Shown in pieces: positions 4,862 through 36,272 of a stretch of DNA of 64,000 nucleotides (positions are counted from its first letter, which is position 1; each line of letters starts with the position of its first letter). This stretch comes from Zeaxanthinibacter sp. (GTDB taxonomy: Bacteria > Bacteroidota > Bacteroidia > Flavobacteriales > Flavobacteriaceae). The stretch lies in NCBI GenBank assembly GCA_041743975.1, contig JBGTLT010000162.1, positions 12,743-76,742 on the forward strand, given 5' to 3'. The notes below the pieces were generated by a model, which was not told where the DNA came from, made no database searches, and saw only the letters and a program-made list of their open reading frames with translations. A program made the translations under genes and the position numbers.

Positions 4862-6268
4862 TTAAAAATCAAAATACGATTTTGCATTGTAATAACTAAT
4901 ATCCTGGACAATTTTCCCGATCCACTCCATTTCCACAGGCAATTCACCGCGTTCGATCTCCTGCCCGAGGAGGTTGCAGAGCACCCGCCTGAAATATTCA
5001 TGCCTGGGGAAAGACAGAAAACTCCGCGAGTCTGTCAGCATGCCTACAAAACAACTAATCAGCCCCATATTGGACAGGTCGTTCATCTGCCTGATCATGC
5101 CGTCCTTCTGGTCCAGGAACCACCAGCCGGAGCCAAACTGTATCTTGCCTCTGACGCTTCCATCGTTAAAGTTCCCGACCATGGTGGCCAGTACGGGGTT
5201 GTCCCCCGGATTGGAATTGTAGAGGATGGTTTTCGCCAGTTTATCCCTGGAGTCGAGCGCATCTAAAAATTTCGATAATTTTTCGGCCTGCGGATAATCG
5301 CCTATGGAATCCCAACCCGTATCCGGGCCTAATTCCCTGTTCATCCTGCTGTTGTTGTTCCGCAATGCCCCAAGGTGAAATTGCTGCACCCATCCCATTT
5401 CATGGTACGTTTCAGCAAGGAAGAGCAACAATGCGCTTTGAAACTGCGCTGCTTCCGTACCCGTTAAAACCTGCTTGTTTCTCCTTTTCAGAAAAACAGA
5501 AGCTACTTCCGGGGAAGAAGCCGGCTCATAATACATATGGTTCAGGCCGTGGTCAGATAATTTACAGCCACGGTGGTCAAAGTAGGTTATCCGGGTTTTT
5601 AGCGCATCGCATAAAGTATCATAGGTATTGATCGTGATATTGGCTGCTTCTCCAAGTCGATCCAGATATTCGTTATAGGCCGGATGCTGGATCAGGATTG
5701 CCTTATCCGGCCTGAAAGCCGTGCTCACTTTGGTCTGGAAATCGCTTTTCGCAATCCTTTGATGGTGTTCGAGCTTGTCGATGGGATCTTCCGTGGTACA
5801 GAGCACCGCAACGTTCATTTTAGTTAATAGCTTCCTGCAGCTGTAAGCTTCAGAATTCAATTTAACCGAAGCCTCACTGTATATGGCGTCTGCCGAATTT
5901 TTATTCAGTAGCCCATGGATATCAAAATAACGCGCCAGCTCGAGGTGTGTCCAGTGATAGAGGGGATTCCTCAGGGTATACGGTACGGACTCTGCCCATT
6001 TTGAAAACTTTTCCTTATCTGTGCCATCGCCCGTTATAAAGCGCTCATCAAACCCCAGCGTACGCATTGCACGCCATTTGTAATGGTCTCCGGAGATCCA
6101 GGCTTTTGTTAAATTCTCAAAGATGGTATCGTTGGCTATATCTCCCGGCGTCAAATGATTGTGGTAGTCAATAATGGGCATTTTACGGGCGTACGAATGG
6201 TACAGTTCCTCTGCATATTTGTTTTCGAGTAGAAAATTCTCATGTATAAATGGTGTGCCGGAGGTCAT
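4862..6268 (-). CDS. uxaC: glucuronate isomerase
   Basis: 468 aa. The N-terminal FIHENFLLENKYAEELYHSYARKMPIIDYHNHL is the classic UxaC signature. Confidence 0.95.
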   Translation of the reverse strand: MTSGTPFIHENFLLENKYAEELYHSYARKMPIIDYHNHLTPGDIANDTIFENLTKAWISGDHYKWRAMRTLGFDERFITGDGTDKEKFSKWAESVPYTLRNPLYHWTHLELARYFDIHGLLNKNSADAIYSEASVKLNSEAYSCRKLLTKMNVAVLCTTEDPIDKLEHHQRIAKSDFQTKVSTAFRPDKAILIQHPAYNEYLDRLGEAANITINTYDTLCDALKTRITYFDHRGCKLSDHGLNHMYYEPASSPEVASVFLKRRNKQVLTGTEAAQFQSALLLFLAETYHEMGWVQQFHLGALRNNNSRMNRELGPDTGWDSIGDYPQAEKLSKFLDALDSRDKLAKTILYNSNPGDNPVLATMVGNFNDGSVRGKIQFGSGWWFLDQKDGMIRQMNDLSNMGLISCFVGMLTDSRSFLSFPRHEYFRRVLCNLLGQEIERGELPVEMEWIGKIVQDISYYNAKSYFDF

Positions 6269-10649: not shown

Positions 10650-13600
10650 ATGAAAATTCGCTACACTTTGTTATTAATATGTTTTTTATTACTTCAATTT
10701 TCCGGGCTTGCTCAACAGGAGATCTCTGTTGCGGGAACAATAACAGATAGCGCCGGGGAACCGTTGCCGGGCGCGAGTATTGTGCTGAAAGGAACCGTAA
10801 CCGGAACACAATCCGATTTTGATGGTAACTATACCCTGGCCGATATTCCTTCTGATGGTACCTTAACTATAAGTTACGTTGGATATACCACGGAGGAAGT
10901 AGCAATTAACGGGCAGACAGCAATCGATGTTGTGCTGTCTGAAGATGCAGAAGCCCTGGATGAAGTGGTTGTGGTTGGATATGGAACCGCTAAAAAAAGG
11001 GATCTCGCCGGTTCAATTGTTAAGGTTGAGGGGGATGTAGTTGCAGACAAACCTAATGCAAACCCTGTGGCTTCTTTACAAGGAAAGGTCGCTGGTTTAT
11101 CTGTAGTTAACTCGGGACAGCCAGGACAAGAACCGGATATTCGTATAAGGGGAACCGTTAGTAGAAATCAAACCAAACCCTTATATGTGGTTGATGGAAT
11201 TTTTAGCGAGGACATCAGTTATATCAATCCAAACGACATAGAGTCTATCGAGTTGCTAAAAGACCCCTCATCTTTGGCCATATTTGGGGTAAGGGGAGCA
11301 AATGGGGTCATACTTGTTACGACCAAGCAAGCAAAAGAGGGAATACTAAATATTAATTTTTCAGCCTCCACTGGCGTTAAATATATTGCTGGAAAACCTG
11401 ACCTGGCCAATGCTGATTTATTTAAAACCTTATATGATGAGCGATTGGTTAATGATGGTTTAGCACCCTATGCTTCTTATAATTTATTCAATGGTGATAC
11501 CGATTGGATTGACCAAATTGCAAATAATGGAGCAATCGTTCAAAATGCCAATTTAAGTATACAAAGTGGTAATGAAACAAATAAAATAAGTATTGGTCTG
11601 GGATATTTAAAAGAAGAAGGAATTATACGAAATGAGGAATTGCAAAGAATTACCATTAATATCAATGATGAAGTCAAAATTTCCGATAATTTAAAAGTTG
11701 GTATTGGTATAAATGGGGTAAAATCAGATTTACCGGGGCCACCCCCCAACAGCCCATATAATTTTGGTGCTGCACTGATAGCGACGCCAATAGTGAGTCC
11801 TTTTAATGCAGATAATGTTTATAATCAATTACCCATCGCAATTGGTGGAGCGCAAGTAGGGAATCCTTTACTGGCGGTAAACGAACGTTTACCGACGACT
11901 ATAGATGACACCTACCGATTTGTTGGCAATGTTTTTGCCGAGTTAAGATTTTTAAAAGACTTTACCTTCAGAACAGCCTATTCGGGTAATTATGGAATTC
12001 AAAAAGGGAGAGGTTATTCTGCCCTTACCCCTGTATATGTTGCAGAAAGCGATGAAATTGCCAATTTTTCAGGACAAATATTAACAAGTGTTTCACAATA
12101 CAATAATACCAAACAGGATTTTCAACAGGATTACCTGCTAACGTATACTAAAGATTTGGGAGATCATGGTATTACAGCGTTATTAGGCTTTACCACCTTT
12201 CAGGAATATCTGGAAAATATCAATGGTTCGGTAAGACAATTGGCTGATGGCGAACCTATTCCTAATGATCCAAGATGGTGGTATTTAAATGTGTTCCCGT
12301 TTGGCGATCAGGATACAAGAATTTCAAATTCAACGCAATGGGACAGGGCCACTTCATCCTCTTTATTCCGGTTATTATATAATTATCAGGGGAAATATAT
12401 CTTAAACGGTTCGTTTAGAAGGGATTCTTCTTCAGAATTACCTGAAGCGACGAGAGACCAAAATTTTTGGTCATTAGGTGCGGCCTGGGAATTAAGCAGA
12501 GAAAAATTTATGGAGAATAGTTTCATTGATTATTTAAAACTCAAGGGTTCTTATGGGGAATTGGGGAATCAATATAATGCTGTAAATTATCCTTACCTGC
12601 CCAATTATCAGTTAGGGGCATCTGCAATATTAGGCAGTCCACAAGGCGTGATTCCTGCTTATGTTTTGGCATATCGAAATTCTAATGATTTAAGATGGGA
12701 AACCATTACCTCTTATGAAGCAGGTCTTGAGTTAACTACTTTTGAAAACAGATTGAAATTTGAAGCTGCTTATTATAATAAATTAACAAAAGATTTATTG
12801 GTATTTGTTACAAGAGGCAGTGAACGATTTTATACCAATGCCGGGGAAATCGAAAATAAGGGTTTTGAATTTTCTACCACCTGGAATGACGCTGTGGGCT
12901 CGGATTTCCAATATTCAATAAGCGGAAATTTAGCAACTGTAGAAAATACTGTAAACTCTGTAGTAGAACCTGGTTTTGAGATATTTGCCGGACCAACACG
13001 TACAAGCGAAGGTTTTCCAATTGGTTCGTTTTTTGGTTATGAAGTCGAAGGGCTTTATCAATCGAATTTAGATATTCAAGCCTCTCCCCCTAGTACAATA
13101 GGTGAGTATGCACCTGGAGATTTTAAATATAGAGACGTGAATGGTGATGGTGTAATAACTGAAGATGACAGAACGGTAATAGGAAACCCAACTCCCGATT
13201 TTACGTATGGTGCAAGTGTAAATCTTGCTTATAAAAACCTCTCATTAGACATTGATGTACAAGGGGTTTATGGAAATGAGATATGGCGAAATTGGGGTAA
13301 TGGAAGTACTTTTGCCCAATTTAACTACAGAAGTGCAAGAGCTGACAGATGGATAGGTGGTGGAACCTCAAACTGGGAACCAAGATTAACTGAAGCTTCC
13401 GGGTATAACAAACAAAATTCTACTTATAATATAGAGGACGGTAGTTACGTAAGACTTCGGAATGTCCAACTTGCTTACAATTTTAAACCATTGACTATAA
13501 ATGGAAAGGATATAAAAAATATGAAATTATATCTCAATGCACAAAATTTATATACCTGGAAACATAATTCTGGTTTTACACCAGAGGCAGGAGGGACCCC

Positions 13601-13676
13601 AATTGAGTTTAGTATTGATAATGGCGGATATCCTTTACCTGTAATAACCAGTTTAGGTTTTAATGTAACATTTTAG
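10650..13676 (+). CDS. susC: SusC/RagA family TonB-linked outer membrane protein
   Basis: 1008 aa. Signal peptide, then a carboxypeptidase-regulatory-like N-terminal domain (ISVAGTITDSAGEPLPGASIVLKGT), a plug region (VVVGYGTAKKRDLAGS) and a terminal aromatic residue (NVTF). A SusD gene follows. Confidence 0.95.
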   Translation: MKIRYTLLLICFLLLQFSGLAQQEISVAGTITDSAGEPLPGASIVLKGTVTGTQSDFDGNYTLADIPSDGTLTISYVGYTTEEVAINGQTAIDVVLSEDAEALDEVVVVGYGTAKKRDLAGSIVKVEGDVVADKPNANPVASLQGKVAGLSVVNSGQPGQEPDIRIRGTVSRNQTKPLYVVDGIFSEDISYINPNDIESIELLKDPSSLAIFGVRGANGVILVTTKQAKEGILNINFSASTGVKYIAGKPDLANADLFKTLYDERLVNDGLAPYASYNLFNGDTDWIDQIANNGAIVQNANLSIQSGNETNKISIGLGYLKEEGIIRNEELQRITININDEVKISDNLKVGIGINGVKSDLPGPPPNSPYNFGAALIATPIVSPFNADNVYNQLPIAIGGAQVGNPLLAVNERLPTTIDDTYRFVGNVFAELRFLKDFTFRTAYSGNYGIQKGRGYSALTPVYVAESDEIANFSGQILTSVSQYNNTKQDFQQDYLLTYTKDLGDHGITALLGFTTFQEYLENINGSVRQLADGEPIPNDPRWWYLNVFPFGDQDTRISNSTQWDRATSSSLFRLLYNYQGKYILNGSFRRDSSSELPEATRDQNFWSLGAAWELSREKFMENSFIDYLKLKGSYGELGNQYNAVNYPYLPNYQLGASAILGSPQGVIPAYVLAYRNSNDLRWETITSYEAGLELTTFENRLKFEAAYYNKLTKDLLVFVTRGSERFYTNAGEIENKGFEFSTTWNDAVGSDFQYSISGNLATVENTVNSVVEPGFEIFAGPTRTSEGFPIGSFFGYEVEGLYQSNLDIQASPPSTIGEYAPGDFKYRDVNGDGVITEDDRTVIGNPTPDFTYGASVNLAYKNLSLDIDVQGVYGNEIWRNWGNGSTFAQFNYRSARADRWIGGGTSNWEPRLTEASGYNKQNSTYNIEDGSYVRLRNVQLAYNFKPLTINGKDIKNMKLYLNAQNLYTWKHNSGFTPEAGGTPIEFSIDNGGYPLPVITSLGFNVTF

Positions 13677-13699: not shown

Positions 13700-15175
13700 A
13701 TGAAAAAAGAAATAGTCTTCATTAAGAATATAATAGGAGCACTGCTTATGTTATCATTTATTATTTCGTGTACTAACGATTTATTGGATACAAAGCCATT
13801 AGGAGTTGCTACTGTTGGAGACCTTACAACCGGTGGTTTTGAAGCAGATGCGTTTGGATTGTACGGACAACTAAGAGATTCGGGCGTTTCAAATTGGACT
13901 AGATTCTGGTTTCAAAGCATTCGTTCCGATGATGCCGATAAAGGGAGTTCGGCTGGCGATCAAGCGCAGGGAGGAGCTGATTTTAATGAATTTAATTATT
14001 CCATTGATAGTGGCTTTAATAATGATAATTGGAATGACCATTACAAAGTGATCAATGCCTGTAATGATTTAATTGATGCCATCGAAGTTTCCGGGTTAAC
14101 GGATAGTGGGACTATGGTAAATATGGCCGAAGCCAGAATGGTAAGGGCATTTCTTTATTTTGATTTAAGAAGGGATTACGGGGAGGTTCCAATAGTTGAT
14201 GAAAAAATAACAGAAGTAACCGATGGGAATAATCCAAAATCTACCGAAGCAGAGGTTGATGCTTTTATTGAAGCTGATCTGGAGTTTGCAAGCGCAAATT
14301 TGCCTTTGACCTGGCCCTCTAACCATGTTGGAAGGGCTACCAAAGGGTTTGCGGATGGGTTACTCGCCAAACTGTATTTATATCAGGAAAACTATGCTGC
14401 TTCTTTGGCAAAAAGTCAGGAAGTTATCAATTCCGGGGTGTATGCATTAGAACCTTCCTATAAAACATTGTTCAACATTGAGGGTAATAATTCGATTGAA
14501 TCTATATTTGAAATACAACAATTGGTTACAGAATCTGGTCAGGAGTTTGGTAATACTTATTATCAATCACAAGGAGTTAGAGGTACGGGCCAATGGGACT
14601 TAGGTTGGGGGTTTAATGTGCCTACCCAAAATTTAGTGGATGCTTATGAACCGGATGACCCAAGGATGGATGACACAATCTTAATTTCGGGTGAAGATGA
14701 TGGCGGTTATGGTAGTGGGACCTTGCCAGGAACTCCTCCTCTGGATCAATTATATTGGAACAAAAAAGCATATACCGAAGCTGCTGAAAGAGTGAGATTT
14801 AGCCTGAGGTTTAATCTGTGGGAGAATATAAAAATTCTTCGATATGCAGATGTTCTGCTAATGGCAGCGGAAGCAGCGGTTCAAACAGGAAATGTGGCTC
14901 TTGCCACGGATTATTTAAACCAGGTAAGGGCACGGGCAAGAGGTGGGGCAAACGTGCTTCCGGATGTAGCACTTGCAACATTAGAGGCTGTCAAGCACGA
15001 AAGAAGAATAGAATTGGCAATGGAAGGGGAGCGTTTTTACGATTTGGTCCGCTGGGGTGAAGCACCTGCCATGTTGGGGGGCTTAGGCTATGAAGCTAGA
15101 AATGAGTGGTATCCAATCCCACAAACGGCAATCGATCAATCGAACGGGGTATTGGTACAAAATCCAAATTATTAA
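13700..15175 (+). CDS. susD: SusD/RagB family nutrient-binding outer membrane lipoprotein
   Basis: 491 aa with a lipoprotein signal (LSFIISC). The C-terminal ERRIELAMEGERFYDLVRWG motif is typical of SusD. Lies 23 nt after susC. Confidence 0.9.
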   Translation: MKKEIVFIKNIIGALLMLSFIISCTNDLLDTKPLGVATVGDLTTGGFEADAFGLYGQLRDSGVSNWTRFWFQSIRSDDADKGSSAGDQAQGGADFNEFNYSIDSGFNNDNWNDHYKVINACNDLIDAIEVSGLTDSGTMVNMAEARMVRAFLYFDLRRDYGEVPIVDEKITEVTDGNNPKSTEAEVDAFIEADLEFASANLPLTWPSNHVGRATKGFADGLLAKLYLYQENYAASLAKSQEVINSGVYALEPSYKTLFNIEGNNSIESIFEIQQLVTESGQEFGNTYYQSQGVRGTGQWDLGWGFNVPTQNLVDAYEPDDPRMDDTILISGEDDGGYGSGTLPGTPPLDQLYWNKKAYTEAAERVRFSLRFNLWENIKILRYADVLLMAAEAAVQTGNVALATDYLNQVRARARGGANVLPDVALATLEAVKHERRIELAMEGERFYDLVRWGEAPAMLGGLGYEARNEWYPIPQTAIDQSNGVLVQNPNY

Positions 15176-23749: not shown

Positions 23750-25375
23750 ATGATCCGAACCACTACCTTCCTGTTCCTGTTACTGCTCGGGGCGATGGGA
23801 TGTAAAGATCAGCAGGCCTCCAAACCAGCATCTTCCCCTCCCAATATTGTTTTTATCATGGCCGATGACCATGCCTTCCAGGCCATAAGTGCCTATGGCC
23901 ATCTCCTGGGTAAACTTGCCCCCACCCCCAATATTGACCGGATTGCAAAGAATGGCGCCCTTTTCACCCATAGTTTTTGCACCAATTCAATCTGTGGTCC
24001 GAGCAGGGCCGTGATCCTCACCGGAAAGCATTCCCATATCAATGGGTTCAGAATGAACGGGGACCGGTTCAACGGGGATCAGCCTACACTCCCGAAGTAC
24101 CTGCAGAAAATAGGGTATCAGACGGCTTTGGTTGGCAAATGGCATCTGTACGGGGAACCAACAGGTTTTGATTACTGGGATATCCTCGATGACCAGGGAA
24201 CCTATTACAATCCCCGGTTCATCCATGATTCCGATACAACGATCGTTAATGGCTACACTACCGATATCATTGCCGAAAAGGGGATTGGATGGCTGCAACA
24301 ACTTAGCAACGCAGGGCAACCTTTCTTTCTTATGCTCCATCATAAGGCCCCCCATAGGAACTGGATGCCCGCCCTGCGGCATATAAACCGTTTTGATTCC
24401 ATCACATTTCCATTGCCCGATAGCTATTTTCCGGATTTTAAGAACCAGCAGGCCGCTATGGAACAAGAGCAGACCATCTACAAGGATTTGTATGAAGGAT
24501 ATGATCTGAAAATGACAACCGGCTTGGGTACTTCAGAATTGGCCCATAGCCCCTGGAAAGCCGATTTTGAAAGGATGACCCGGGAACAGCGCGAATCATG
24601 GGACAATGGCTACCGGGAAAAGAACGATGCCTTCCACAAGGCCCGTTTAAAAGGGAAAGACCTTGCTGTCTGGAAGGGCCAGCGCTACCTGCAGGATTAC
24701 CTGGCAACGATTGTGGCCGTGGATGAGAGTGTGGGCAGGGTCCTGGATTACCTGGAGGAGAACGGCCTGAGTGATAACACCCTGGTGGTATATACTTCAG
24801 ACCAGGGTTTTTACCTGGGTGAAAACGGCTGGTTCGACAAGCGCTTTATGTATGAGGAATCCCTGAGGATGCCGTTGCTGATGCAGTTACCAGGCGTGAT
24901 AGGACCCGGCAGCACTATTGATGCCATGGTGCAGAACCTGGATTTTGCCCAGACCTTCCTGGAGCTTGCCGGCGGTAGTGAATATACGGATGGGATGCAG
25001 GGAAGATCCTTTAAGGGCCTGTTGGACGGAAGTATGGACCCTGGAAATTTCAGGGATGTGGTGTACTATCATTATTATGATTTCCCTGCCTTCCACATGG
25101 TTAAAAAACACTATGGGATTAGGACCAAAAGATATAAATTGATACATTTCTATGATGATAATGACGCATGGGAATTTTATGACCTGGAAGAAGATCCCGA
25201 AGAAAAGCAGAATGCTATTTCGGATGCCCGCTATGCAGAAAGTATTGCTGCAATGCACCGGAATTTGGACAGTATTCAAAAGGAATACGGTGTTACTGCC
25301 AAAGAATTTGAAAGGGCGCCCAGGGAAAAAGTTGAGCAGGCATATAAGGACTTTAAAAGGTTAAGGGGGAATTAA
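23750..25375 (+). CDS. formylglycine-dependent sulfatase (S1 family) lipoprotein
   Basis: Lipobox LLLGAMGC. PNIVFIMADDH followed by the sulfatase signature C-x-P-S-R (SICGPSRAVILTGK). The Cys codon is at 23993..23995. The C-terminal WEFYDLEEDPEE motif is common in this family. Confidence 0.9.
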   Translation: MIRTTTFLFLLLLGAMGCKDQQASKPASSPPNIVFIMADDHAFQAISAYGHLLGKLAPTPNIDRIAKNGALFTHSFCTNSICGPSRAVILTGKHSHINGFRMNGDRFNGDQPTLPKYLQKIGYQTALVGKWHLYGEPTGFDYWDILDDQGTYYNPRFIHDSDTTIVNGYTTDIIAEKGIGWLQQLSNAGQPFFLMLHHKAPHRNWMPALRHINRFDSITFPLPDSYFPDFKNQQAAMEQEQTIYKDLYEGYDLKMTTGLGTSELAHSPWKADFERMTREQRESWDNGYREKNDAFHKARLKGKDLAVWKGQRYLQDYLATIVAVDESVGRVLDYLEENGLSDNTLVVYTSDQGFYLGENGWFDKRFMYEESLRMPLLMQLPGVIGPGSTIDAMVQNLDFAQTFLELAGGSEYTDGMQGRSFKGLLDGSMDPGNFRDVVYYHYYDFPAFHMVKKHYGIRTKRYKLIHFYDDNDAWEFYDLEEDPEEKQNAISDARYAESIAAMHRNLDSIQKEYGVTAKEFERAPREKVEQAYKDFKRLRGN

Positions 25376-30058: not shown

Positions 30059-30907
30059 TTATTCCTGGGTTATCTGGCGCATCCCTGTTGCAGGCTCCGT
30101 CTCCCTGAATGCCCACTTCAGGAATTCGGGGAAAACTGTGGCCCAGGTAGGCAAATTATGCTTTCCCCCCTGTACTTCCACATAGGTTATGTCCCCAGGG
30201 AAAGAGTACCCTTTCTGCTGTAATTCCTTTATTACATCCAGCGTATCATCAATGGAATCTATAATCCCGTTTAGGTTTCGATCGGCATGTTCATCCTGTG
30301 TACCGCATTGAAACCAGAATTTCAAGTGTGGGTGGTACGGCCCTTGTTTAATTTCATCGAGGATAATACGGCTCCTGTCCGCAAGGTCCTTTTTCTGATA
30401 GGCCTTTTTCCGCCACCAAAAGGAGCCGCTGAACACCCCTGTTTTCCCGAATACCCGGGCATGCTTAAAGACAATATCAAATGCTGACAAGCCGCCCAAA
30501 GACATGCCACAGTACACCCAGTCTCCCGGTTGCTCAGAGGTATTGAACTCACTTTTGAGAAAAGGCACAAACTCTTCCACAATGAATTTGGAATACAGGT
30601 GGGCATTGCCACCCCTTCCCTTAAAATCAGCCCTGGAAATTGTGCCGTAGTCGTGTATCCGGTTATCGTTGGTTTCTATGCCAATATATATAAAGGGCTG
30701 AATGTGTTTGTTCCTGAAGGTATTAATCAGTGTTTGTTCCAGTCCCATCCCTAAAAAATCCTGTCCGTCATTCATCAATAAAACAGGGAAAGGTTTTTGA
30801 GCGGTCTTAAAATTGCCCGGGGCGGCCAGGCGAAAGCTTACCTTCCTTTCCAGGTTCCTGGAAAGGAAGCTTCCTTTCAACATCATTATATCCGTTTCGA
30901 ATTGCAT
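30059..30907 (-). CDS. esterase family protein (PF00756-like alpha/beta hydrolase)
   Basis: GMSLGGLSA nucleophile elbow (G-x-S-x-G). Start set at the ATG at 30907, since the track start at 30928 is a TTG. Divergent from the ligase operon. Confidence 0.72.
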   Translation of the reverse strand: MQFETDIMMLKGSFLSRNLERKVSFRLAAPGNFKTAQKPFPVLLMNDGQDFLGMGLEQTLINTFRNKHIQPFIYIGIETNDNRIHDYGTISRADFKGRGGNAHLYSKFIVEEFVPFLKSEFNTSEQPGDWVYCGMSLGGLSAFDIVFKHARVFGKTGVFSGSFWWRKKAYQKKDLADRSRIILDEIKQGPYHPHLKFWFQCGTQDEHADRNLNGIIDSIDDTLDVIKELQQKGYSFPGDITYVEVQGGKHNLPTWATVFPEFLKWAFRETEPATGMRQITQE

Positions 30908-31032
30908 CGGTTTTTGTAGAAGTTGCAAGTATAACGAATCCGTAAATTAAATCTTGCCCTGGCAGAAATTAATCTAAATTAGCCGCCATTGATTAGTTGT
31001 AAGATTAACATATTTAGGGTACATTTAGAATA

Positions 31033-31743
31033 ATGGCAAATATCCAACACCTTCAATACTATTCCAATACGATGGGAATGGACATCAACCTGGAAATTAC
31101 CGGGCATTGGGGCCATCCGGTATTGATGTTTCCTTCATCAGGCGGTCAGTATACCCAAAATACAGATTTTGGGCTTAACGGGTCGGTTATGCAATTTGTT
31201 GAGGAGGGGCGCATCAAACTATACAATGTGGAAACGTTGGACATGCGGTCCTTTTATGCTGACGGGATGGCATCGGAAATAAAGATCCACAACTACGAAT
31301 TATACATGCGGTTCCTTCAAAATGAATTGATCCCTTATATACAAAGGGAATGCAACACCCACCGGGTTGCGGTGTCTGGAGTGAGCTTCGGGGGCTACCA
31401 TGCGGCCAATACCGCCTTTCGTTTCCCCGATTTCATTTCACACCTCTTCTCCATGTCGGGGGTATTCAGCATCCGAAATTTTGTTCCACTTTCGGAGGAT
31501 ATGCGAATTTACTTTAATTGTCCGGACGAGTTTATGAAACACGAAGAGTCCTGGAAATACAATCACATGCAGATTGTGTTGAGCACGTCAGACTGGGATA
31601 GTTGCAAACCGAAGAACCAGCACATGGCAGGAATCCTGGATTCAAAAGGTATTGCCCACTGGTATGACGAAAAAAAATGGATAGAGCACGACTGGCCCTT
31701 GTGGAAAATGGTTTTCCCGGAATATATTGGCCGTTATTTTTAG
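31033..31743 (+). CDS. esterase family protein (PF00756-like alpha/beta hydrolase)
   Basis: GVSFGGYHA nucleophile elbow. 236 aa. First gene of the co-directional run ending at 36272. Confidence 0.72.
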   Translation: MANIQHLQYYSNTMGMDINLEITGHWGHPVLMFPSSGGQYTQNTDFGLNGSVMQFVEEGRIKLYNVETLDMRSFYADGMASEIKIHNYELYMRFLQNELIPYIQRECNTHRVAVSGVSFGGYHAANTAFRFPDFISHLFSMSGVFSIRNFVPLSEDMRIYFNCPDEFMKHEESWKYNHMQIVLSTSDWDSCKPKNQHMAGILDSKGIAHWYDEKKWIEHDWPLWKMVFPEYIGRYF

Positions 31744-31771
31744 AAGTTGAAACGATTCAAAATTATACATC

Positions 31772-33001
31772 ATGTCAAAAAAAGTAGGGATATTATTTGG
31801 AATGGAAGATACCTTCCCCTGGGCTTTTATCAATAAAGTCAATGAATTGGGGAATGGAACAGTGGTAGCAGAACCCGTGACCATCGATAAGGTACAGCAG
31901 GGGATCGATTACGGATACCATGTGATCATCGACCGGATATCGCAGGAAGTACCTTTTTACCGATCGTACCTTAAAAACGCCGCTTTGATGGGGACGGCAG
32001 TAATCAATAACCCCTTTTGGTGGAGTGCAGATGAAAAGTTTTTTAACAATTGCCTTTCCATGCAGATAGGTGTCCCGGTACCAAAAACAATCCTGCTGCC
32101 TTCCAAAGCCCGGCCGGATGATACTACTGAAAAATCTTTCAGGAACCTTAAAGCACCGCTGGACTGGGATTACATTTTTAACTATATCGGATTTCCGGCT
32201 TACATGAAACCCCATTCCGGGGGCGGGTGGAAAAGTGTTTACCGGGTAGACAACCAGGACGACCTGTTCGACAAACTTGAGGAAACCGGACAGTTGGTTA
32301 TGATGCTACAGGAGGAAATTGTTTTCGAAGATTATTACAGGGTCTACTGCCTGGGTCAAAAATATGTGCACATTATGCCCTATGAGCCTCGCAACGCCTT
32401 CCATGAACGCTATGTAACCGAACCTAAAACAACCGGGGAGGAGCATCAGAAGTTGATGAAGACCATCCATGACTATACCATTAAGCTCAACAAGGCCCTG
32501 GGTTATGATTTTAACACAGTGGAATTTGCGATTCGCAATGGCATTCCCTATGCGATCGACTTCTGCAACCCGGCTCCTGATGCGGATATACATTCTGTGG
32601 GACAGGCCAATTTTAACTGGATCGTCGAACATGCTGCAAAATTTGCCGTGGAAAAGGCTAATTCTCACAAAGCCAGGCAAAACAACTGCTCCTGGGGAAC
32701 ATTTTTACAAACAGCCGTAAACCCGCCCATACCAATAGCGGCCAAGGTCAACTTAAAAACAGCAGCCCAGGCCAAAAAAACAGCGGTAAAAACACCGATG
32801 GACATTGAGGCAAAATCTTCGGTCCGGAAGTTGAGGGCGGTTGTCAACAAAACGACATCAAAGCCCAAGCCTGTTAGTAAAGGTTCAAAAGCTACCGCTG
32901 CCACAGCCAAATTCAAAACCGGGGAAACCGATTCAGCCAAGGCTGCCAGAGAAAAGAAAGATACAGGCAAAGCAGCGGCAAAAAAACCTAAAACCAAATA
33001 G
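31772..33001 (+). CDS. ATP-grasp ligase with a Lys/Ala-rich C-terminal tail of about 90 aa
   Basis: ATP-grasp motifs in the normal order: AYMKPHSGGGWKSVYRV, then EFAIRNGIPYAIDFCNPAPDAD. In the tail from about aa 320, roughly 22 of 89 residues are Lys, ending AAAKKPKTK. Confidence 0.75.
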   Translation: MSKKVGILFGMEDTFPWAFINKVNELGNGTVVAEPVTIDKVQQGIDYGYHVIIDRISQEVPFYRSYLKNAALMGTAVINNPFWWSADEKFFNNCLSMQIGVPVPKTILLPSKARPDDTTEKSFRNLKAPLDWDYIFNYIGFPAYMKPHSGGGWKSVYRVDNQDDLFDKLEETGQLVMMLQEEIVFEDYYRVYCLGQKYVHIMPYEPRNAFHERYVTEPKTTGEEHQKLMKTIHDYTIKLNKALGYDFNTVEFAIRNGIPYAIDFCNPAPDADIHSVGQANFNWIVEHAAKFAVEKANSHKARQNNCSWGTFLQTAVNPPIPIAAKVNLKTAAQAKKTAVKTPMDIEAKSSVRKLRAVVNKTTSKPKPVSKGSKATAATAKFKTGETDSAKAAREKKDTGKAAAKKPKTK

Positions 33002-33033
33002 TAAGCGAGGAGCTGTAAACCCCGATACGGAAA

Positions 33034-34131
33034 ATGCATAAGTTCACACTAGGGATAGAAGAAGAATTTCAAATACTGGATGCCGAAACTTTAAAACTTC
33101 GTTCCCAGATGTCAAAGATTATTGACGGGGGAAAAGTACTTTTAAAGGAACGCATCAAGGAAGAAATGCATCAGTCCGTTGTGGAAATGGGCACTAATGT
33201 CTGTGAAAATATACAACAGGCCAGGGATGAAGTTTCCTACCTAAGGCAACAGGTCATTGCACTCGCTGCCAAAGAGGACCTTAAAGTCGCCGCTGCAGGT
33301 ACCCATCCATTTTCTCACTGGAGCGAACAACTCATAACCCCCAACCCGCGATATGATGCCCTGATAGCTGAAATGAAGGATGTGGCGCGGTCCAATCTTA
33401 TCTTTGGGATGCATGTGCACATAGGGATACCCAACCGGGAAGAAGGGCTTCAGATCATGAATGTGGCCCGGTATTTTTTGCCCCATCTGTATGCCCTTTC
33501 CACCAATTCGCCATTTTGGGAAGGCCGGGAGACAGGGTTTAAATCCTTTCGATCCAAGATCTTTGATAAATTTCCGAGAACAGGGATCCCGCCCTACTTT
33601 GCCAGTGTCGCCGAATATGATAAATTCATTGAAATCCTGGTAAAGACCCGCTGTATAGACAACGGCAAGAAAATTTGGTGGGACATCCGTTTGCATCCGT
33701 TTTATCCCACAGTGGAATTCCGGGTGTGCGATATGGTCCTGACCGTTGATGAGGTAATGTGTATTGCAGCACTGATGCAATGTATCATTGCAAAACTCCA
33801 TCTGTTACATCAGAAGAACCAGAGTTTCAGGTCGTACAGGCGTGTCCTGATCAATGAAAACAAATGGCGTGCAGCCCGATGGGGCATAGAGGCGCAACTC
33901 ATTGATTTTGGGAAAGAAGAAGAGGTGCCGTTCAATACACTTATCAACGAACTTCTCGAGTTTATAGATGATGTGGTGGATGACCTGGGCTGCCGAACTG
34001 AAGTGAATTATGTATACCAGATGTTACAGCAGGGTTCGGGGGCCGACAGGCAGCTTAAGGTTTTTGAGGATTCCCAGGATCTGAAACAGGTGGTACAGTA
34101 CATCGTGGAACAAACTGCCAAAGGGCTGTAA
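33034..34131 (+). CDS. carboxylate-amine ligase, glutamate-cysteine ligase family 2 (YbdK-like)
   Basis: The N-terminal FTLGIEEEFQILD is the GCS2 hallmark. 365 aa is the typical length. Confidence 0.85.
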   Translation: MHKFTLGIEEEFQILDAETLKLRSQMSKIIDGGKVLLKERIKEEMHQSVVEMGTNVCENIQQARDEVSYLRQQVIALAAKEDLKVAAAGTHPFSHWSEQLITPNPRYDALIAEMKDVARSNLIFGMHVHIGIPNREEGLQIMNVARYFLPHLYALSTNSPFWEGRETGFKSFRSKIFDKFPRTGIPPYFASVAEYDKFIEILVKTRCIDNGKKIWWDIRLHPFYPTVEFRVCDMVLTVDEVMCIAALMQCIIAKLHLLHQKNQSFRSYRRVLINENKWRAARWGIEAQLIDFGKEEEVPFNTLINELLEFIDDVVDDLGCRTEVNYVYQMLQQGSGADRQLKVFEDSQDLKQVVQYIVEQTAKGL

Positions 34132-34242
34132 GCCGGACAAAAGAAAAAGACAACTTTTGCGTTAGGGGTACGATCGGAAGAATTTTCAGGGGAGTATCCT
34201 AAGGAAAGCAGGGTACCGATATCAGAAATCAAAAAAAAAACT

Positions 34243-35079
34243 ATGCAGGAAATGATTAAAATAGCCATACTGGATATGAATGCAGGACAACCCAATGAGG
34301 GGATGCGCTGTATCAATTTGCTGGTCGGGCAATTTTTGGATGGGGAGGGTATTAAAGGCAGTTATGACATATTTGAAGTGCGCATCAAATCAGAAATTCC
34401 CCGCATGGAGGATTATGACATCTTTATTTCATCGGGAGGACCCGGCTCCCCGTTACTAACAGGATCGGTATGGGAAAAGAATTATTTTGAACTCCTGGAT
34501 GCCATCCTGAGTAATAATTTGGTATACCCAAAAAAAAAATACCTTTTCCTGATCTGCCATTCCTTCCAGCTGGCATGCCTCCATTGGGACCTGGCAAAAG
34601 TAATGAAACGCAAATCCACCTCTTTTGGCATCTATCCCATGTTTAAAACCCAAAGCGGGGAACTGGAACCTTTGTTTAAAGGCCTGGACAATCCGTTCTA
34701 TGGGGTGGATTCCAGGGATTACCAGGTTGTGGGGCCCCACGAATGGAAGCTGGATACCCTGGATGGGAAGGTATTGTGCCGGGAAAAAGAACGTTCACAT
34801 GTTCCCCTGGAAAGGGCTGTCATGGCCATCCGGTTTTCCAGGGAAATATTCGGGGTGCAATTCCATCCCGAGGCGGATTCCGAAGGCATGTTGCACTATT
34901 TTCTAAGGGAAGACATGCGGAAAAAAGTCATTAAGCTCCATGGGCAGAAAAAATACCTCGACATGCTTGAACACCTGGATGATGATGATAAGATTCTCAA
35001 AACCAATCGCATAATCATTCCCAGGTTTTTGCAACAGGCAGCTGATGCGATGGAACAACTAAAACTATCCACAGCATGA
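34243..35079 (+). CDS. class I glutamine amidotransferase-fold protein (candidate gamma-glutamyl-type amidohydrolase)
   Basis: Nucleophile-elbow Cys in FLICHSFQ and His-Glu in GVQFHPE, so the triad signature is intact. No fused synthase domain. Confidence 0.8.
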   Translation: MQEMIKIAILDMNAGQPNEGMRCINLLVGQFLDGEGIKGSYDIFEVRIKSEIPRMEDYDIFISSGGPGSPLLTGSVWEKNYFELLDAILSNNLVYPKKKYLFLICHSFQLACLHWDLAKVMKRKSTSFGIYPMFKTQSGELEPLFKGLDNPFYGVDSRDYQVVGPHEWKLDTLDGKVLCREKERSHVPLERAVMAIRFSREIFGVQFHPEADSEGMLHYFLREDMRKKVIKLHGQKKYLDMLEHLDDDDKILKTNRIIIPRFLQQAADAMEQLKLSTA

Positions 35080-36272
35080 TACCAAAGGTACGGGAAGCCT
35101 TTAATGCGGGCTTTGAACAGGAATTCTATGAGAACCTCCAGCGTCATGTACAGGAAACCTTTGGAGAACCCTGTGCATTCAGGATCTCGGAAACCCCGGT
35201 ATTTATAAGCCGTGAGGTCAGGAATAAGGTTTTTAAGGCATGTGATTCCATAATTGACCAGATATGGAAGTTAGACCTGGAGGCCATCAGGAGGCAGTAC
35301 ACCCCGGTACAAACCGGAACTGGCAACCTGAAGGGGAAGCCGCATTTCCTGGCTATTGATTTTGGGTTGTGCCAGGACAGCCAGGGCGAAATAGTCCCCC
35401 AATTGATAGAATTGCAGGCGTTCCCCTCCCTGATGTTCTACCAACCGTTTCTGGGCAAGGCATACCTTTCCACTTATCCCAACATTCCCAAAACGGGCTT
35501 TCATTATTTCCTGGATAACCTGGACGAAGCAGGGTATCTTAAAAAAGTAAAAGAGCTGATCCTTGGCCGGGAACATCCTGACAATGTGATTCTTATGGAA
35601 TTGTACCCGGAGCAACAAAAAACAAGGCTCGATTTCTGGGCTACCCGGCAGGCGTTGGGGATAGAAGTTGTTTGCATGACAAAAGTAATCAAAAAGGGGA
35701 AGAAACTTTATTACAATAAAGACGGGAAATTATGCCCCATACACCGGATTTATAACCGGGTGATATTTGATGAATTGTTACGGTATCCAGACCTTAAGAC
35801 CGAGTTTAATCTGTATGAGGACCTGGAGGTGGAATGGATCACCCACCCCGACTGGTTTTTTGTGATCTCAAAATGCATAATGCCCCTGTTGAACCACCGG
35901 TATATCCCCGAGTCATTTTATCTCAGCGACATCCCCCCGGACCTTGATCTGAAGCAGTATGTATTGAAGCCACTTTTCTCATTTGCCGGAAAAGGAATAG
36001 ACCTGAACCCCTCCCGCGAGACCCTGGACCAACTCACTGACCCGGAGCACTACCTCCTGCAAAAGAAAGTTGAATACGCCTCCCTCATCAAAACCAACAC
36101 GGATAAGAATTCAAAAGTGGAACTGCGGATCCTCTATATTCTGGACCAGGAAGAGGACAGGCTGAAACCGGTAATTAACCTTACCAGGATGGGCAAAGGC
36201 GGACTTATTAATGTTTCCCACCTCACCGAGGATACCTGGATTGGTTCCTCCATCAGTTTCTTTGAGAATTAG
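35076..36272 (+). CDS. hypothetical protein with ATP-grasp-like motifs in permuted order (candidate circularly permuted ATP-grasp ligase)
   Basis: An Mg/ATP-site-like motif (FLAIDFGLCQDSQGEIVPQLIELQAFPS) lies at about aa 90-125. A KP..G.G-like motif (VLKPLFSFAGKGI) lies near aa 300. The ATG overlaps the upstream stop (ATGA). Coding is well supported; the function is an inference. Confidence 0.5.
   Translation: MIPKVREAFNAGFEQEFYENLQRHVQETFGEPCAFRISETPVFISREVRNKVFKACDSIIDQIWKLDLEAIRRQYTPVQTGTGNLKGKPHFLAIDFGLCQDSQGEIVPQLIELQAFPSLMFYQPFLGKAYLSTYPNIPKTGFHYFLDNLDEAGYLKKVKELILGREHPDNVILMELYPEQQKTRLDFWATRQALGIEVVCMTKVIKKGKKLYYNKDGKLCPIHRIYNRVIFDELLRYPDLKTEFNLYEDLEVEWITHPDWFFVISKCIMPLLNHRYIPESFYLSDIPPDLDLKQYVLKPLFSFAGKGIDLNPSRETLDQLTDPEHYLLQKKVEYASLIKTNTDKNSKVELRILYILDQEEDRLKPVINLTRMGKGGLINVSHLTEDTWIGSSISFFEN

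Follow-up and report, generated by a model that had tools for sequence, protein, structure and literature searches.

A conserved six-gene amidoligase cluster from a member of the Flavobacteriaceae as a candidate pathway to a small peptide-like metabolite

Six genes within a 64,000-nucleotide stretch of Zeaxanthinibacter sp. DNA (the whole of which is termed the window) make up a cluster of three predicted amide ligases, a glutamine-amidotransferase-type protein and two serine esterases, five of which keep their order and strand across distant lineages. Here, we propose with moderate confidence that the six genes constitute a conserved cytoplasmic, NRPS-independent pathway that builds, and trims or recycles, a small peptide-like metabolite. 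A preliminary description of this DNA had proposed an uncharacterised pathway to a gamma-glutamyl peptide or low-molecular-weight thiol. The uncharacterised amidoligase cluster stands, and the literature searched contains no experimental work on it and no defined product; the specificity for a thiol is not supported.

Operon organisation and conservation

The features of the cluster are listed in table 1. The six open reading frames, the ATGA overlap that joins the GAT stop to the ORF6 start and the GIEEEF motif (GCS2 residues 7-12) are all present as first described. The public gene call for GAT begins at 34252. The E1 reading frame extends to 30928 from an alternative TTG (30059..30928, minus strand), while its ATG at 30907 gives a 282-aa product identical to the public gene call. 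Gaps in the E2-AG-GCS2-GAT run are 28, 32 and 111 nt in the ORF listing, and a search between the cluster genes revealed no small ORF for a tag or precursor.

Table 1. Features of the cluster, in window coordinates.
Feature	Position	Strand	Description
E1	30059..30907	minus	cytoplasmic PF00756 serine esterase, divergent from the operon
Divergent intergenic region	30908..31032		two conserved blocks
E2 (second esterase)	31033..31743	+	236-aa cytoplasmic alpha/beta serine hydrolase, first gene of the operon
AG	31772..33001	+	predicted divergent classical ATP-grasp amide ligase
GCS2	33034..34131	+	YbdK-type carboxylate-amine ligase
GAT	34243..35079	+	stand-alone class-I glutamine-amidotransferase-type protein
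ORF6	35076..36272	+	398-aa predicted circularly permuted ATP-grasp ligase, GspS/YgiC/eukaryotic-GS-like

Conservation was assessed in 70 loci that extend 5.5 kb or more upstream of ORF6. In 45 of these, E2, AG, GCS2, GAT and ORF6 are all co-directional and in the same order, an arrangement far beyond chance. Taken singly, GAT is present in 62/70 loci, GCS2 in 58/70, AG in 54/70 and E2 in 49/70, in all of which E2 lies directly upstream of AG; a divergent copy of E1 accompanies 29/70. The five-gene loci come from Flavobacteriaceae, Weeksellaceae, Cytophagales, Chitinophagaceae, Ignavibacteria and one Verrucomicrobiota MAG, whereas ribE, pdxA and yceD, the genes that flank the cluster in the window, accompany it in just about 10 loci, all of Flavobacteriaceae. 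Because the flanking genes differ while the five-gene order stays, the arrangement reflects an operon and not local synteny. The earlier inference of a single operon thus agrees with the gaps of 28-111 nt, the ATGA overlap and the retention of order and strand, which the preliminary description had wished to see checked in related genomes.

Both gene content and co-variation point to a division into two modules, {E2, AG} and {GCS2, GAT, ORF6}. GCS2-GAT-ORF6 occurs without E2 and AG in four loci, and GAT adjoins ORF6 even in four loci where just that pair remains. In a mirror-tree comparison of pairwise distances, uncorrected for shared phylogeny, the partial r is 0.63 for E2-AG (the strongest partnership of E2), 0.51 for GCS2-GAT and 0.52 for GCS2-ORF6, but is low (0.18) for GAT-ORF6. 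Some lineages add genes to the cluster: an M17 leucyl aminopeptidase and a fourth ligase, a DdaF/LAL-like ATP-grasp, in Weeksellaceae (17 loci), an ArgD-like class-III aminotransferase (ArgD/putrescine-aminotransferase-like) in Cytophagales (14 loci, immediately after the cluster and on its strand) and, in one locus, an M29-like peptidase where GAT would be.

Alignment of 16 Flavobacteriaceae E1-E2 intergenic regions revealed two conserved blocks, TGCAAGTATAAcGAAT near the E1 start and AAATAAATTAcTTTTGC upstream of E2. The latter contains TAnnTTTG, which we take to be the Bacteroidota -7 promoter element, and the two blocks are probably two Bacteroidota-type promoters.

Enzymes encoded by the cluster

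GCS2, AG and ORF6 each retain intact active-site residues and are predicted to be active ligases. GCS2 matches PF04107 (218.6 bits, 1.5e-64) and the 'carboxylate-amine ligase' model NF010039 (549.7 bits against a cutoff of 371), and its PDB match is YbdK (1r8g, 3e-49), which together with GIEEEF bears out the original GCS2-type call. E. coli YbdK has weak gamma-Glu-Cys ligase activity, and the GCS2 superfamily also holds PafA and Dop.

AG and ORF6 have no Pfam match above threshold, AG having none at all; the other expected families (PF00756, PF04107 and PF00117) were recovered. AG is predicted to be a divergent classical ATP-grasp amide ligase, with a core of residues 1-316 in which K89, K146, R190, E251, D263 and N266 are invariant. 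R190 is the conserved Arg typical of amide-forming ATP-grasp enzymes, and the D263-x-x-N266 spacing, in place of ExN, is unusual. Its similarities are all weak, to rimK_fam (6.1e-7, 29 bits against a 143-bit cutoff), to Ddl (D-Ala-D-Ala ligase; 2.9e-4 in a profile search of the PDB) and to R2K_2 in 22/30 members (best 1e-4). The AF2 model of AG is poor (pLDDT 49) and was left out of the analysis. Residues 317-409 (nt 32720-32998) form a Lys/Ala-rich basic tail (K 24%, A 19%, pI 10.6) that is carried in Flavobacteriaceae and has no counterpart in Weeksellaceae, Chitinophagaceae or Ignavibacteria, which places it outside the core mechanism.

ORF6 belongs to a family without a Pfam model and, on its modelled structure, is best described as a GspS/YgiC/eukaryotic-GS-like circularly permuted ATP-grasp, as had been proposed from its motifs. 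GSP_synth, CP_ATPgrasp and GSH_synth_ATP match only below threshold, but Foldseek comparison of the AF2 model (pLDDT 86.7) with circularly permuted ATP-grasp ligases gives E values of 1e-14 to 1e-9, including 3n6x (3.5e-14), YgiC (1.5e-13), human GS (1.9e-13), GspS (5e-12) and Cp1B (4e-11); yeast and plant glutathione synthetases are also among the matches. Identity to the GS/GspS/YgiC structures is only 13-16%, and a profile search of the PDB finds YgiC (1.1e-4) through a common S-x-K...VLKP...G-x-G-V block. The characterised structural relatives (GS, GspS, YgiC/YjfC and Cp1B) all couple an amino acid or amine to the carboxylate of a small acid or a peptide. The family comprises 929 clusters at 50% identity in a library of 1.84 billion proteins. 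Profile searches place none of the three ligases in the cyanophycin, Ddl or RimK equivalogs, whose pathways the preliminary description had named as grounds for rejecting its proposal.

GAT matches PF00117 (32.1 bits against a cutoff of 22.8), and the GATase1 fold with an intact Cys-His-Glu signature is upheld by 34 diverse homologues, all of which match PF00117 (best 2.5e-12) and in which the triad C105, H208 and E210 is invariant within the blocks S63-x-GGPG-x-P70, C105-H-S-F-Q109 and Q206-F-H-P-E210. The SGGPGSP motif that it bears is typical of true amidotransferases; similarity to solved GATases is marginal (3l7n 5.7e-4, MetA/HTS 1.6e-3). The suggestion of a PuuD-like gamma-glutamyl hydrolase is not supported, since none of the 34 homologues matches Peptidase_C26/PuuD at E<=1. 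A glutaminase that feeds ammonia to a ligase was not among the options first considered.

Both esterases belong to PF00756, as predicted, E1 with 79.9 bits (3.3e-22) and E2 with a partial match of 36.3 bits (6.8e-9). The nucleophile motif and histidine are conserved in at least 90% of homologues, namely GxSxG with S143 plus H257 in 35 homologues of E1 and G116-x-S118-x-G120 plus H219 in 54 of E2. E1 finds its best matches in feruloyl esterases and in esterases of the bacillibactin, enterobactin and IroE types (PDB matches to BesA 2qm0 at 1.3e-6, IroE-like, Fes and feruloyl esterases), and no S-formylglutathione hydrolase model matches it. The esterases resemble siderophore and feruloyl esterases and not S-formylglutathione hydrolases. 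The idea that every member has a glutathione counterpart reduces to a coincidence at superfamily level.

A proposed pathway and its closest known systems

We infer the following scheme for the sequence of reactions, their substrates and the part played by GAT. GCS2 would form the first amide, attaching an amino acid or amine probably through a gamma-glutamyl-type bond. ORF6 would then activate the free carboxylate of this intermediate as an acyl-phosphate and couple it to a second nucleophile. GAT, in the same module, would most likely act as a glutaminase supplying ammonia for a carboxamide cap, or alternatively hydrolyse a gamma-glutamyl amide. AG may add one or more further residues, and E2 and the divergent E1 may split ester, thioester or amide bonds of the product or of an intermediate, either to turn it over or to edit it.

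The recruits (M17, DdaF/LAL-like ATP-grasp, M29-like and aminotransferase) act on small peptides or amino compounds, which favours a small-metabolite pathway, as does the lack of a between-gene ORF for a tag or precursor. Against it, no transporter, regulator or precursor-supply gene accompanies the operon consistently, the identity of AG (59-85% from Ignavibacteria to Flavobacteriaceae, a phylum-level distance) is more typical of constraint by a macromolecular partner, and the weak RimK/R2K affinities of AG are to protein-modifying clades.

One of the closest known routes is glutathione/glutathionylspermidine biosynthesis (GshA/YbdK, GS, GspS and YgiC/YjfC), which shares a GCS2-superfamily ligase, successive ATP-dependent amide ligations, the permuted fold of ORF6 (Foldseek E 1e-14 to 1e-12 for GS/GspS/YgiC) and, with YgiC, the S-x-K...VLKP block. 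GspS bears an N-terminal amidase domain in a chain of 587 residues, for which the 398-aa ORF6 has no room, and the third ligase AG, the GATase and the two esterases have no counterpart in that route. CarA supplies ammonia to CarB, and GatD likewise to MurT. GAT resembles these glutaminases in being a free-standing GATase that bears the triad and the GGPG, C-x-x-x-Q and H-P-E motifs, and its gene immediately precedes, with translational coupling, that of ORF6, a predicted acyl-phosphate-forming ATP-grasp ligase. The low GAT-ORF6 co-variation and the absence of a GAT-ORF6 fusion among the 150 best representatives leave the glutaminase-subunit idea weakly founded, and a hydrolytic function is hinted at by the locus with a peptidase-like gene in place of GAT. 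Amidoligase gene neighbourhoods in which, as here, ATP-grasp and COOH-NH2 (GCS2/GS-like) ligases sit alongside peptidases were reportedly predicted by Iyer, Abhiman, Burroughs and Aravind (2009, Mol Biosyst 5:1636). Ligases linked in this way are described as frequently carrying out successive peptide ligations that yield peptide-derived metabolites, storage polypeptides or cofactors (PMC4431377).

Competing explanations

A serious rival, though an unlikely one, is a protein- or peptide-tagging system in which AG, and possibly ORF6 and GCS2, attach amino acids or amines to a protein whose gene lies elsewhere, at its C-terminus or on its side chains. The conservation of AG is extreme, and its sole sequence affinities, although weak, are to rimK_fam and R2K_2, clades proposed or known to be protein modifiers (PMC4431377). 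In Flavobacteriaceae, its histone-H1-like tail could provide a docking site for ribosomes or nucleic acids. The peptide-spermidine ligases YgiC/YjfC act on peptides (PMC12568646), and M17 and M29-like peptidases join the cluster. PafA and Dop fall within the superfamily of GCS2, but GCS2 itself is a close YbdK-type equivalog and not PafA-like. AG, moreover, scores far below the rimK_fam cutoff, retains the linker lysine K89, which is absent from R2K enzymes, and is without the tail in three lineages; no conserved tag or target gene was found in or beside the operon in the locus neighbourhoods. Models for such a system would be the action of RimK on S6, of PafA with Pup and of YgiC/YjfC on peptides; GAT would then deamidate or hydrolytically trim, and the modification would be removed by the esterases and peptidases. 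Protein targets did not feature in the preliminary description.

Amine or nitrogen handling is improbable. Here PuuA/PuuD-like gamma-glutamylation would activate or detoxify amines or omega-amino acids, or store and mobilise nitrogen, and the pairing of a carboxylate-amine ligase with a class-I-GATase-fold Cys-His-Glu protein mirrors PuuA/PuuD logic; the aminotransferase of Cytophagales also speaks for this reading. PuuA, however, is GS-type and not GCS2, PuuD belongs to Peptidase_C26, which GAT does not match, no Puu-like oxidase or aldehyde dehydrogenase is linked, and three ATP-consuming ligases seem excessive for catabolism. Nitrogen-related genes do lie nearby: about 9 Cytophagales loci have an ORF of about 107 aa (possibly glnK) together with amt and porin genes, and 11 Chryseobacterium loci have genes for cphA, cyanophycinase and isoaspartyl peptidase. 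These are on the opposite strand and each confined to a single lineage, and so probably reflect local synteny.

We regard as very improbable a glutathione-like low-molecular-weight thiol, or its polyamine conjugate, made and recycled by the cluster. The pairing of a YbdK-type GCS2 with a GS/GspS-like ORF6 would suit such a product, and M17 aminopeptidases, linked in Weeksellaceae, act as Cys-Gly dipeptidases in E. coli. The observed carriers (Bacteroidota, Ignavibacteria and one Verrucomicrobiota MAG) are also compatible with it. Yet the neighbourhoods contain no thiol- or cysteine-specific gene apart from a DinB_2 gene (thiol-transferase superfamily) inside the cluster of one Spirosoma locus, ORF6 falls below threshold for GSP_synth and GSH_synth_ATP, and neither GAT nor the esterases are of the types expected. 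The host clade, furthermore, already uses bacillithiol derivatives: N-methyl-bacillithiol is an abundant thiol (about 1150 pmol per mg dry weight) in the marine Flavobacteriaceae member Polaribacter MED152, and the study that reported this predicts the bshA-C/nmbA route for many Bacteroidetes and Ignavibacteriae and reports no gshA-B orthologues for Bacteroidetes (PMC6282198). Nothing found points specifically to a glutathione-like thiol.

That the genes are functionally unrelated neighbours, given the look of a pathway by large enzyme superfamilies, is barely credible: every family assignment is generic and ORF6 stands without its partners beside uppS and rsmE in several Saprospiraceae/Chitinophagales loci, but this reading is already contradicted by the synteny data, with order and strand kept between families, orders and phyla as the flanks vary, and also has against it the GAT/ORF6 start-stop overlap and the correlated divergence between genes (shared phylogeny uncorrected).

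For the small-metabolite pathway, the pairing of a YbdK-type GCS2 with a GS/GspS/YgiC-like ligase makes a gamma-glutamyl-type peptide the most economical product, and the evidence as a whole suggests, as its best reading, that the carriers of this operon make a small gamma-glutamyl-type or amide-capped peptide.

Gene cluster and its conservation

All six open reading frames (ORFs) of the preliminary description were found where it had placed them, together with the overlap of the GAT stop codon and the ORF6 start codon (ATGA) and the motif GIEEEF at residues 7–12 of GCS2. The cluster consists of a divergent esterase gene (E1) and a co-directional run of five genes, which encode a second esterase (E2), an ATP-grasp ligase (AG), a YbdK-type ligase (GCS2), a class-I GATase (GAT) and a 398-amino-acid ligase (ORF6). 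Gaps in the window from E2 to ORF6 are 28, 32, 111 and −4 nt, and the GC content of the cluster (0.44–0.46) is the same as that of its flanks. Upstream lies a polysaccharide-utilisation region (window 7663–30033), headed by a 917-amino-acid ORF (7663–10416) without a Pfam match at E ≤ 1e-5. In addition to the genes tabulated here, this region has genes for a Laminin_G_3 protein, a glucoamylase-like protein, an EEP phosphatase, TauE, an SSF symporter and HGSNAT; window GC falls to 0.37–0.41 at 10–16 kb. There is no Rfam match across the whole window.

Coordinates of the cluster genes and of genes in the upstream polysaccharide-utilisation region
Feature	Window positions	Strand	Basis or remark
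E1	30059..30907	−	Public gene call is the 282-aa form from ATG; in-frame upstream TTG at 30928 possible
E2	31033..31743	+	PF00756, partial match
AG	31772..33001	+	ATP-grasp catalytic template; no Pfam match
GCS2	33034..34131	+	PF04107, NF010039
GAT	34243..35079	+	PF00117; public call is 275 aa, start 34252
ORF6	35076..36272	+	AF2/Foldseek fold match
SusC-like	10650-13676		Polysaccharide-utilisation region
SusD-like	13700-15175		Polysaccharide-utilisation region
Sulfatase	23750-25375		Polysaccharide-utilisation region

The sequence between E1 and E2 (30908–31032) contains two blocks that are conserved among Flavobacteriaceae, TGCAAGTATAAcGAAT and AAATAAATTAcTTTTGC. These are likely candidates for divergent Bacteroidota promoters, with a regulator site as the alternative; a scan for sigma-70 promoters and terminators gave a signal no better than shuffled sequences.

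Conservation was assessed at 80 loci with ORF6 relatives, one genome per species, onto which the window proteins were mapped and in which all ORFs were clustered. The recurring families are ORF6 (79 loci), GAT (66), GCS2 (61), AG (57) and the esterase family (57). Where at least 5.5 kb of upstream sequence was available (70 loci), GAT is present in 62, GCS2 in 58, AG in 54, E2 in 49 and the divergent E1 in 29; the five genes are complete and co-directional in 45 of the 70, with median gaps of 24–56 nt. Carriers belong to the Flavobacteriaceae, Weeksellaceae, Cytophagales, Chitinophagaceae and Ignavibacteria (loci L039, L052 and L059), with one metagenome-assembled genome (MAG) from the Verrucomicrobiota (L067). 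The window flanks, namely the SSF symporter and HGSNAT upstream and ribE, pdxA and yceD downstream, recur in Flavobacteriaceae only, and the conservation of the cluster is therefore not local synteny; SSF-HGSNAT likewise adjoins the cluster in this family only. By shared strand, short gaps and a gene order kept beyond local synteny, the five genes are predicted to form an operon, which agrees with the probable single operon first proposed. Identity to the window protein is uneven, at 59–85% for AG, 55–90% for GCS2, 43–73% for GAT, 40–69% for ORF6, 34–81% for E2 and 28–67% for E1; AG is conserved to the level of a housekeeping enzyme. The cluster is a solid phylum-wide 'conserved unknown'.

Ligases and hydrolases of the cluster

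AG was assigned from sequence alone, as its AF2 model (pLDDT 49, shallow alignment) was discarded. Classical ATP-grasp enzymes share a template of a linker lysine, a strand-2 lysine, a conserved arginine, an acidic residue and an ExN-type motif (PMC4431377). Invariant across 30 AG sequences are K89, K146, R190, E251 and D263..N266, a set that fits this template, with unusual spacing in the final motif (DxxN versus ExN-type). AG scores well below the cutoff of the rimK_fam model (TIGR00768; 6e-7, 29.1 bits against 143.4). Its profile has a weak match to Ddl in the PDB (2.9e-4), and R2K_2 (PF18299) is weakly matched by 22 of 30 members (best 1e-4). The R2K clade has lost the linker lysine and the ssxGbGl loop (PMC4431377); since the linker D87-x-K89 is invariant in AG, which also has an S-G-G-G-W-K loop, R2K membership is ruled out.

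The second ligase reads as a clear YbdK-type carboxylate-amine ligase, in line with its original assignment: GCS2 exceeds the cutoffs of PF04107 (218.6 bits, 1.5e-64) and NF010039 (549.7 bits against 371), and matches YbdK in the PDB (1r8g, 3e-49). It falls under the cutoff of all glutamate–cysteine ligase equivalogs (NF010043/42/44/45).

No family model matches ORF6 above threshold and it has no Pfam model of its own; GSP_synth scores 15.3 bits against a threshold of 29.3. Across 63 family members, PF03738, PF14403 and PF04174 give sub-threshold matches only (22, 9 and 4 members, respectively); by name, the sub-threshold Pfam matches are to GSP_synth, CP_ATPgrasp_1/2 and the eukaryotic GSH_synth_ATP. 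The AF2 model (pLDDT 86.7, pTM 0.88) yields 28 Foldseek matches at E ≤ 0.001, all to one group (E 3.5e-14 to 5e-6; TM normalised to the query 0.46–0.62; structures 3n6x, 7uk8, 7uk6, 2io7, 2hgs, 1m0w, 3kal and 9cjn). This group comprises the putative GSP synthase 3n6x, YgiC, YjfC, GspS and trypanothione synthetase, as well as human, yeast and plant glutathione or homoglutathione synthetases and the E-64 ligase Cp1B. The family profile also matches YgiC by sequence (1.1e-4) via a common S-x-K...VLKP...G-x-G-V block. ORF6 is therefore predicted to have the fold of GspS, YgiC and eukaryotic glutathione synthetase (GS); the Foldseek, YgiC and sub-threshold Pfam matches bear out the initial call of a permuted ATP-grasp at the level of fold, but sequence models do not reach it. 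YgiC is without GspS activity (PMC12506659), so substrates are not predictable from fold membership. The ORF6 family is large, with more than 7,600 matches among 90%-identity clusters and 929 clusters at 50% identity. Five distant homologues (P0283, P0290, P0317, P0326 and P0255) carry N-terminal extensions of 100–190 amino acids that start like signal peptides, an unexpected feature in an ATP-dependent ligase; among them is a sodium:solute symporter fusion. None of the extensions is similar to other cluster proteins, and hence they provide no Rosetta-stone link.

Both esterases belong to PF00756 (threshold 22 bits), E1 at 79.9 bits (3.3e-22) and the shorter alpha/beta hydrolase E2 at 36.3 bits (6.8e-9), covering only profile positions 92–154 of 251. 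The nucleophile elbow and histidine are kept in at least 90% of homologues, as G141-x-S143-x-G145 and H257 in E1 (35 homologues) and G116-x-S118-x-G120 and H219 in E2 (54 homologues). In our reading of the N-termini, both proteins appear to lack a signal peptide. The proposed PF00756 membership thus holds, but the kinship to esterase D/S-formylglutathione hydrolase does not: at E ≤ 0.01 in NCBIfam neither esterase matches the FrmB/YeiG model, and the only matches, all far under cutoff, are to enterochelin esterase, GTNG_0744 esterase and xylanase/feruloyl esterase. Among solved structures in the PDB, E1 comes closest to the bacillibactin esterase BesA, an IroE-like hydrolase, the enterochelin esterase Fes and feruloyl esterases.

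GAT exceeds the PF00117 threshold (32.1 bits against 22.8), and all 34 homologues compared match this model. C105, H208 and E210 are invariant in these homologues (identity down to 43%), within the invariant motifs S63-x-GGPG-x-P70, C105-H-S-F-Q and Q-F-H208-P-E210. The GATase1 fold and intact Cys-His-Glu triad are as claimed at the outset; the suggested kinship to PuuD and gamma-glutamyl hydrolases is not, for none of the 34 diverse homologues matches Peptidase_C26 (PF07722) even at E ≤ 1. Because GAT is of amidotransferase type and keeps its place beside ORF6, we considered a role in which glutamine-derived ammonia would cap an activated carboxylate. The pairing of glutaminase and ligase in CarA/CarB and GatD/MurT is a possible parallel to GAT and ORF6. 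This role has thin support, being countered by weak GAT–ORF6 co-variation and by the lack of GAT–ORF6 fusions among the ORF6 homologues examined, and is at least as likely as the gamma-glutamyl hydrolase role first envisaged. A hydrolytic role for this slot is hinted at by the Verrucomicrobiota locus L067, where a gene for an M29-like peptidase (8765–9784) lies between GCS2 and ORF6 in the position of GAT; this may be a non-orthologous replacement.

Possible modules and accessory genes

Judging by gene content and co-variation, the operon seems to fall into two modules, E2-AG and GCS2-GAT-ORF6. The latter occurs without the former in L038, L040, L048 and L074, and GAT-ORF6 stand by themselves in L060, L078, L079 and L081. 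Partial correlations of pairwise distances over 46 complete loci (E2-AG 0.63, GCS2-GAT 0.51, GCS2-ORF6 0.52) are soft evidence, as the statistic ignores shared phylogeny.

In 17 Weeksellaceae loci, genes for an M17 leucyl aminopeptidase and a fourth ligase, an ATP-grasp_4 protein that is weakly DdaF/LAL-like, are found upstream of E2 (e.g. L016:3306–5954). Several loci of this family (e.g. L019) have a distant E1-like esterase (approx. 24% identity) further upstream on the same strand, giving an eight-gene co-directional cluster. Directly downstream of ORF6 and on the same strand, 14 Cytophagales loci have a class-III aminotransferase (L031:11265–12458, L053:11196–12407), which resembles ArgD and putrescine and ornithine aminotransferases and falls under every NCBIfam cutoff. 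In approximately nine of the Cytophagales loci the aminotransferase is followed by an opposite-strand ORF of approximately 107 amino acids, possibly glnK, then amt and a porin gene. A complete cyanophycin set, with cphA on the opposite strand, S51 cyanophycinase and isoaspartyl peptidase, lies just downstream in 11 Chryseobacterium loci (L019:12533–17168) and is probably local synteny. The cyanophycin genes, and amt and porin with the possible glnK, were rejected as functional links, being judged lineage-restricted, opposite-strand local synteny.

Insertions within the cluster, each at a single locus, are heterogeneous (a toxin–antitoxin pair, SSB, purH, an extra lipase-/S9-like hydrolase), and solitary ORF6 loci adjoin the housekeeping genes uppS and rsmE; both are uninformative as to function. 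Single-locus insertions at L064:6462–7126 and at L044:2558–3052 and 4922–6112 include a Gp49/HTH toxin–antitoxin pair, a DinB_2 protein and a lipase-/S9-like serine hydrolase.

Candidate products and biological meaning

Neighbourhoods of linked amidoligases typically carry out successive ligations in the synthesis of peptide-derived metabolites, storage polypeptides and cofactors, as outlined by Aravind and co-workers (PMC4431377), and the design of this cluster belongs to that class. We infer that its enzymes would assemble a small peptide-like compound stepwise and independently of NRPS, and turn it over; the sequence of reactions and every substrate are likewise inferred. Small-peptide assembly is argued for by the presence of three unrelated ligases, all with their catalytic residues intact, in whose company peptidases and serine hydrolases recur. 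It is also argued for by the characterised relatives of ORF6, all of which link the carboxylate of a small acid or peptide to an amino acid or an amine. A gamma-glutamyl-type core would be the most economical guess, since a YbdK-type GCS2 is paired with a ligase of GS/GspS fold.

The main rival is protein modification. The conservation of AG is unusual for a secondary-metabolite enzyme, and the clades for which AG shows a faint affinity modify proteins. It also has a basic C-terminal tail of 93 amino acids (residues 317–409, nt 32720–32998), rich in Lys, Ala, Thr and Pro (K 24%, A 19%; pI 10.6, against 5.9 for the core) and resembling histone H1. However, AG falls outside both RimK and R2K, and tails, which vary in length, occur in Flavobacteriaceae, some Cytophagales and one Weeksellaceae locus (L057); most other lineages, among them the other Weeksellaceae, Chitinophagaceae and Ignavibacteria, are without one. 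A target or tag gene is linked to the cluster in none of the loci examined, and a search between the cluster genes for a short ORF that might encode a tag or precursor found none.

A glutathione-like thiol is possible but unsupported as the product. A new thiol was the most distinctive claim of the preliminary description and is its least supported part. The cluster has no thiol-specific gene, and a marine flavobacterium already contains N-methyl-bacillithiol at approximately 1150 pmol per mg (PMC6282198); bshA–C/nmbA have a broad predicted occurrence in Bacteroidetes and Ignavibacteriae (PMC6282198). The conserved cluster stands and its first interpretation is upheld in part, but the glutathione framing does not count as evidence. 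A Puu-like amine route or nitrogen storage is suggested only by lineage-restricted neighbours, with the aminotransferase, amt and porin with the possible glnK, and cyanophycin genes each nearby in single lineages.

Taking small-peptide assembly further, it is conceivable, if rather unlikely, that the operon provides aerobic Bacteroidota and Ignavibacteriota with a new core metabolite. This would be a tri- or tetrapeptide of gamma-glutamyl type, which three unrelated ligases would build and dedicated serine hydrolases recycle; it might be amidated at its C-terminus with glutamine-derived ammonia or capped by an amine. If true, the bacillithiol derivatives would be joined by a second small peptide of phylum-wide occurrence, with a role in redox, nitrogen or stress. 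The design principle is known, but the combination of genes is uncharacterised, as are its product and two of the families to which the three ligases belong, and no paper on the cluster was found in the literature searched.

Bacteroidota dominate soil and freshwater habitats as well as the turnover of polysaccharides in the sea, and thousands of their genomes carry the cluster. Culturable carriers include Chryseobacterium, Dyadobacter, Chitinophaga and many Flavobacteriaceae, making the question directly testable. Identifying the product would reveal a small peptide metabolite that is both new and widespread, or else a new protein modification, and would also assign substrates to the YbdK-type GCS2, the YgiC-like family and the divergent ATP-grasp, all of which are poorly understood.
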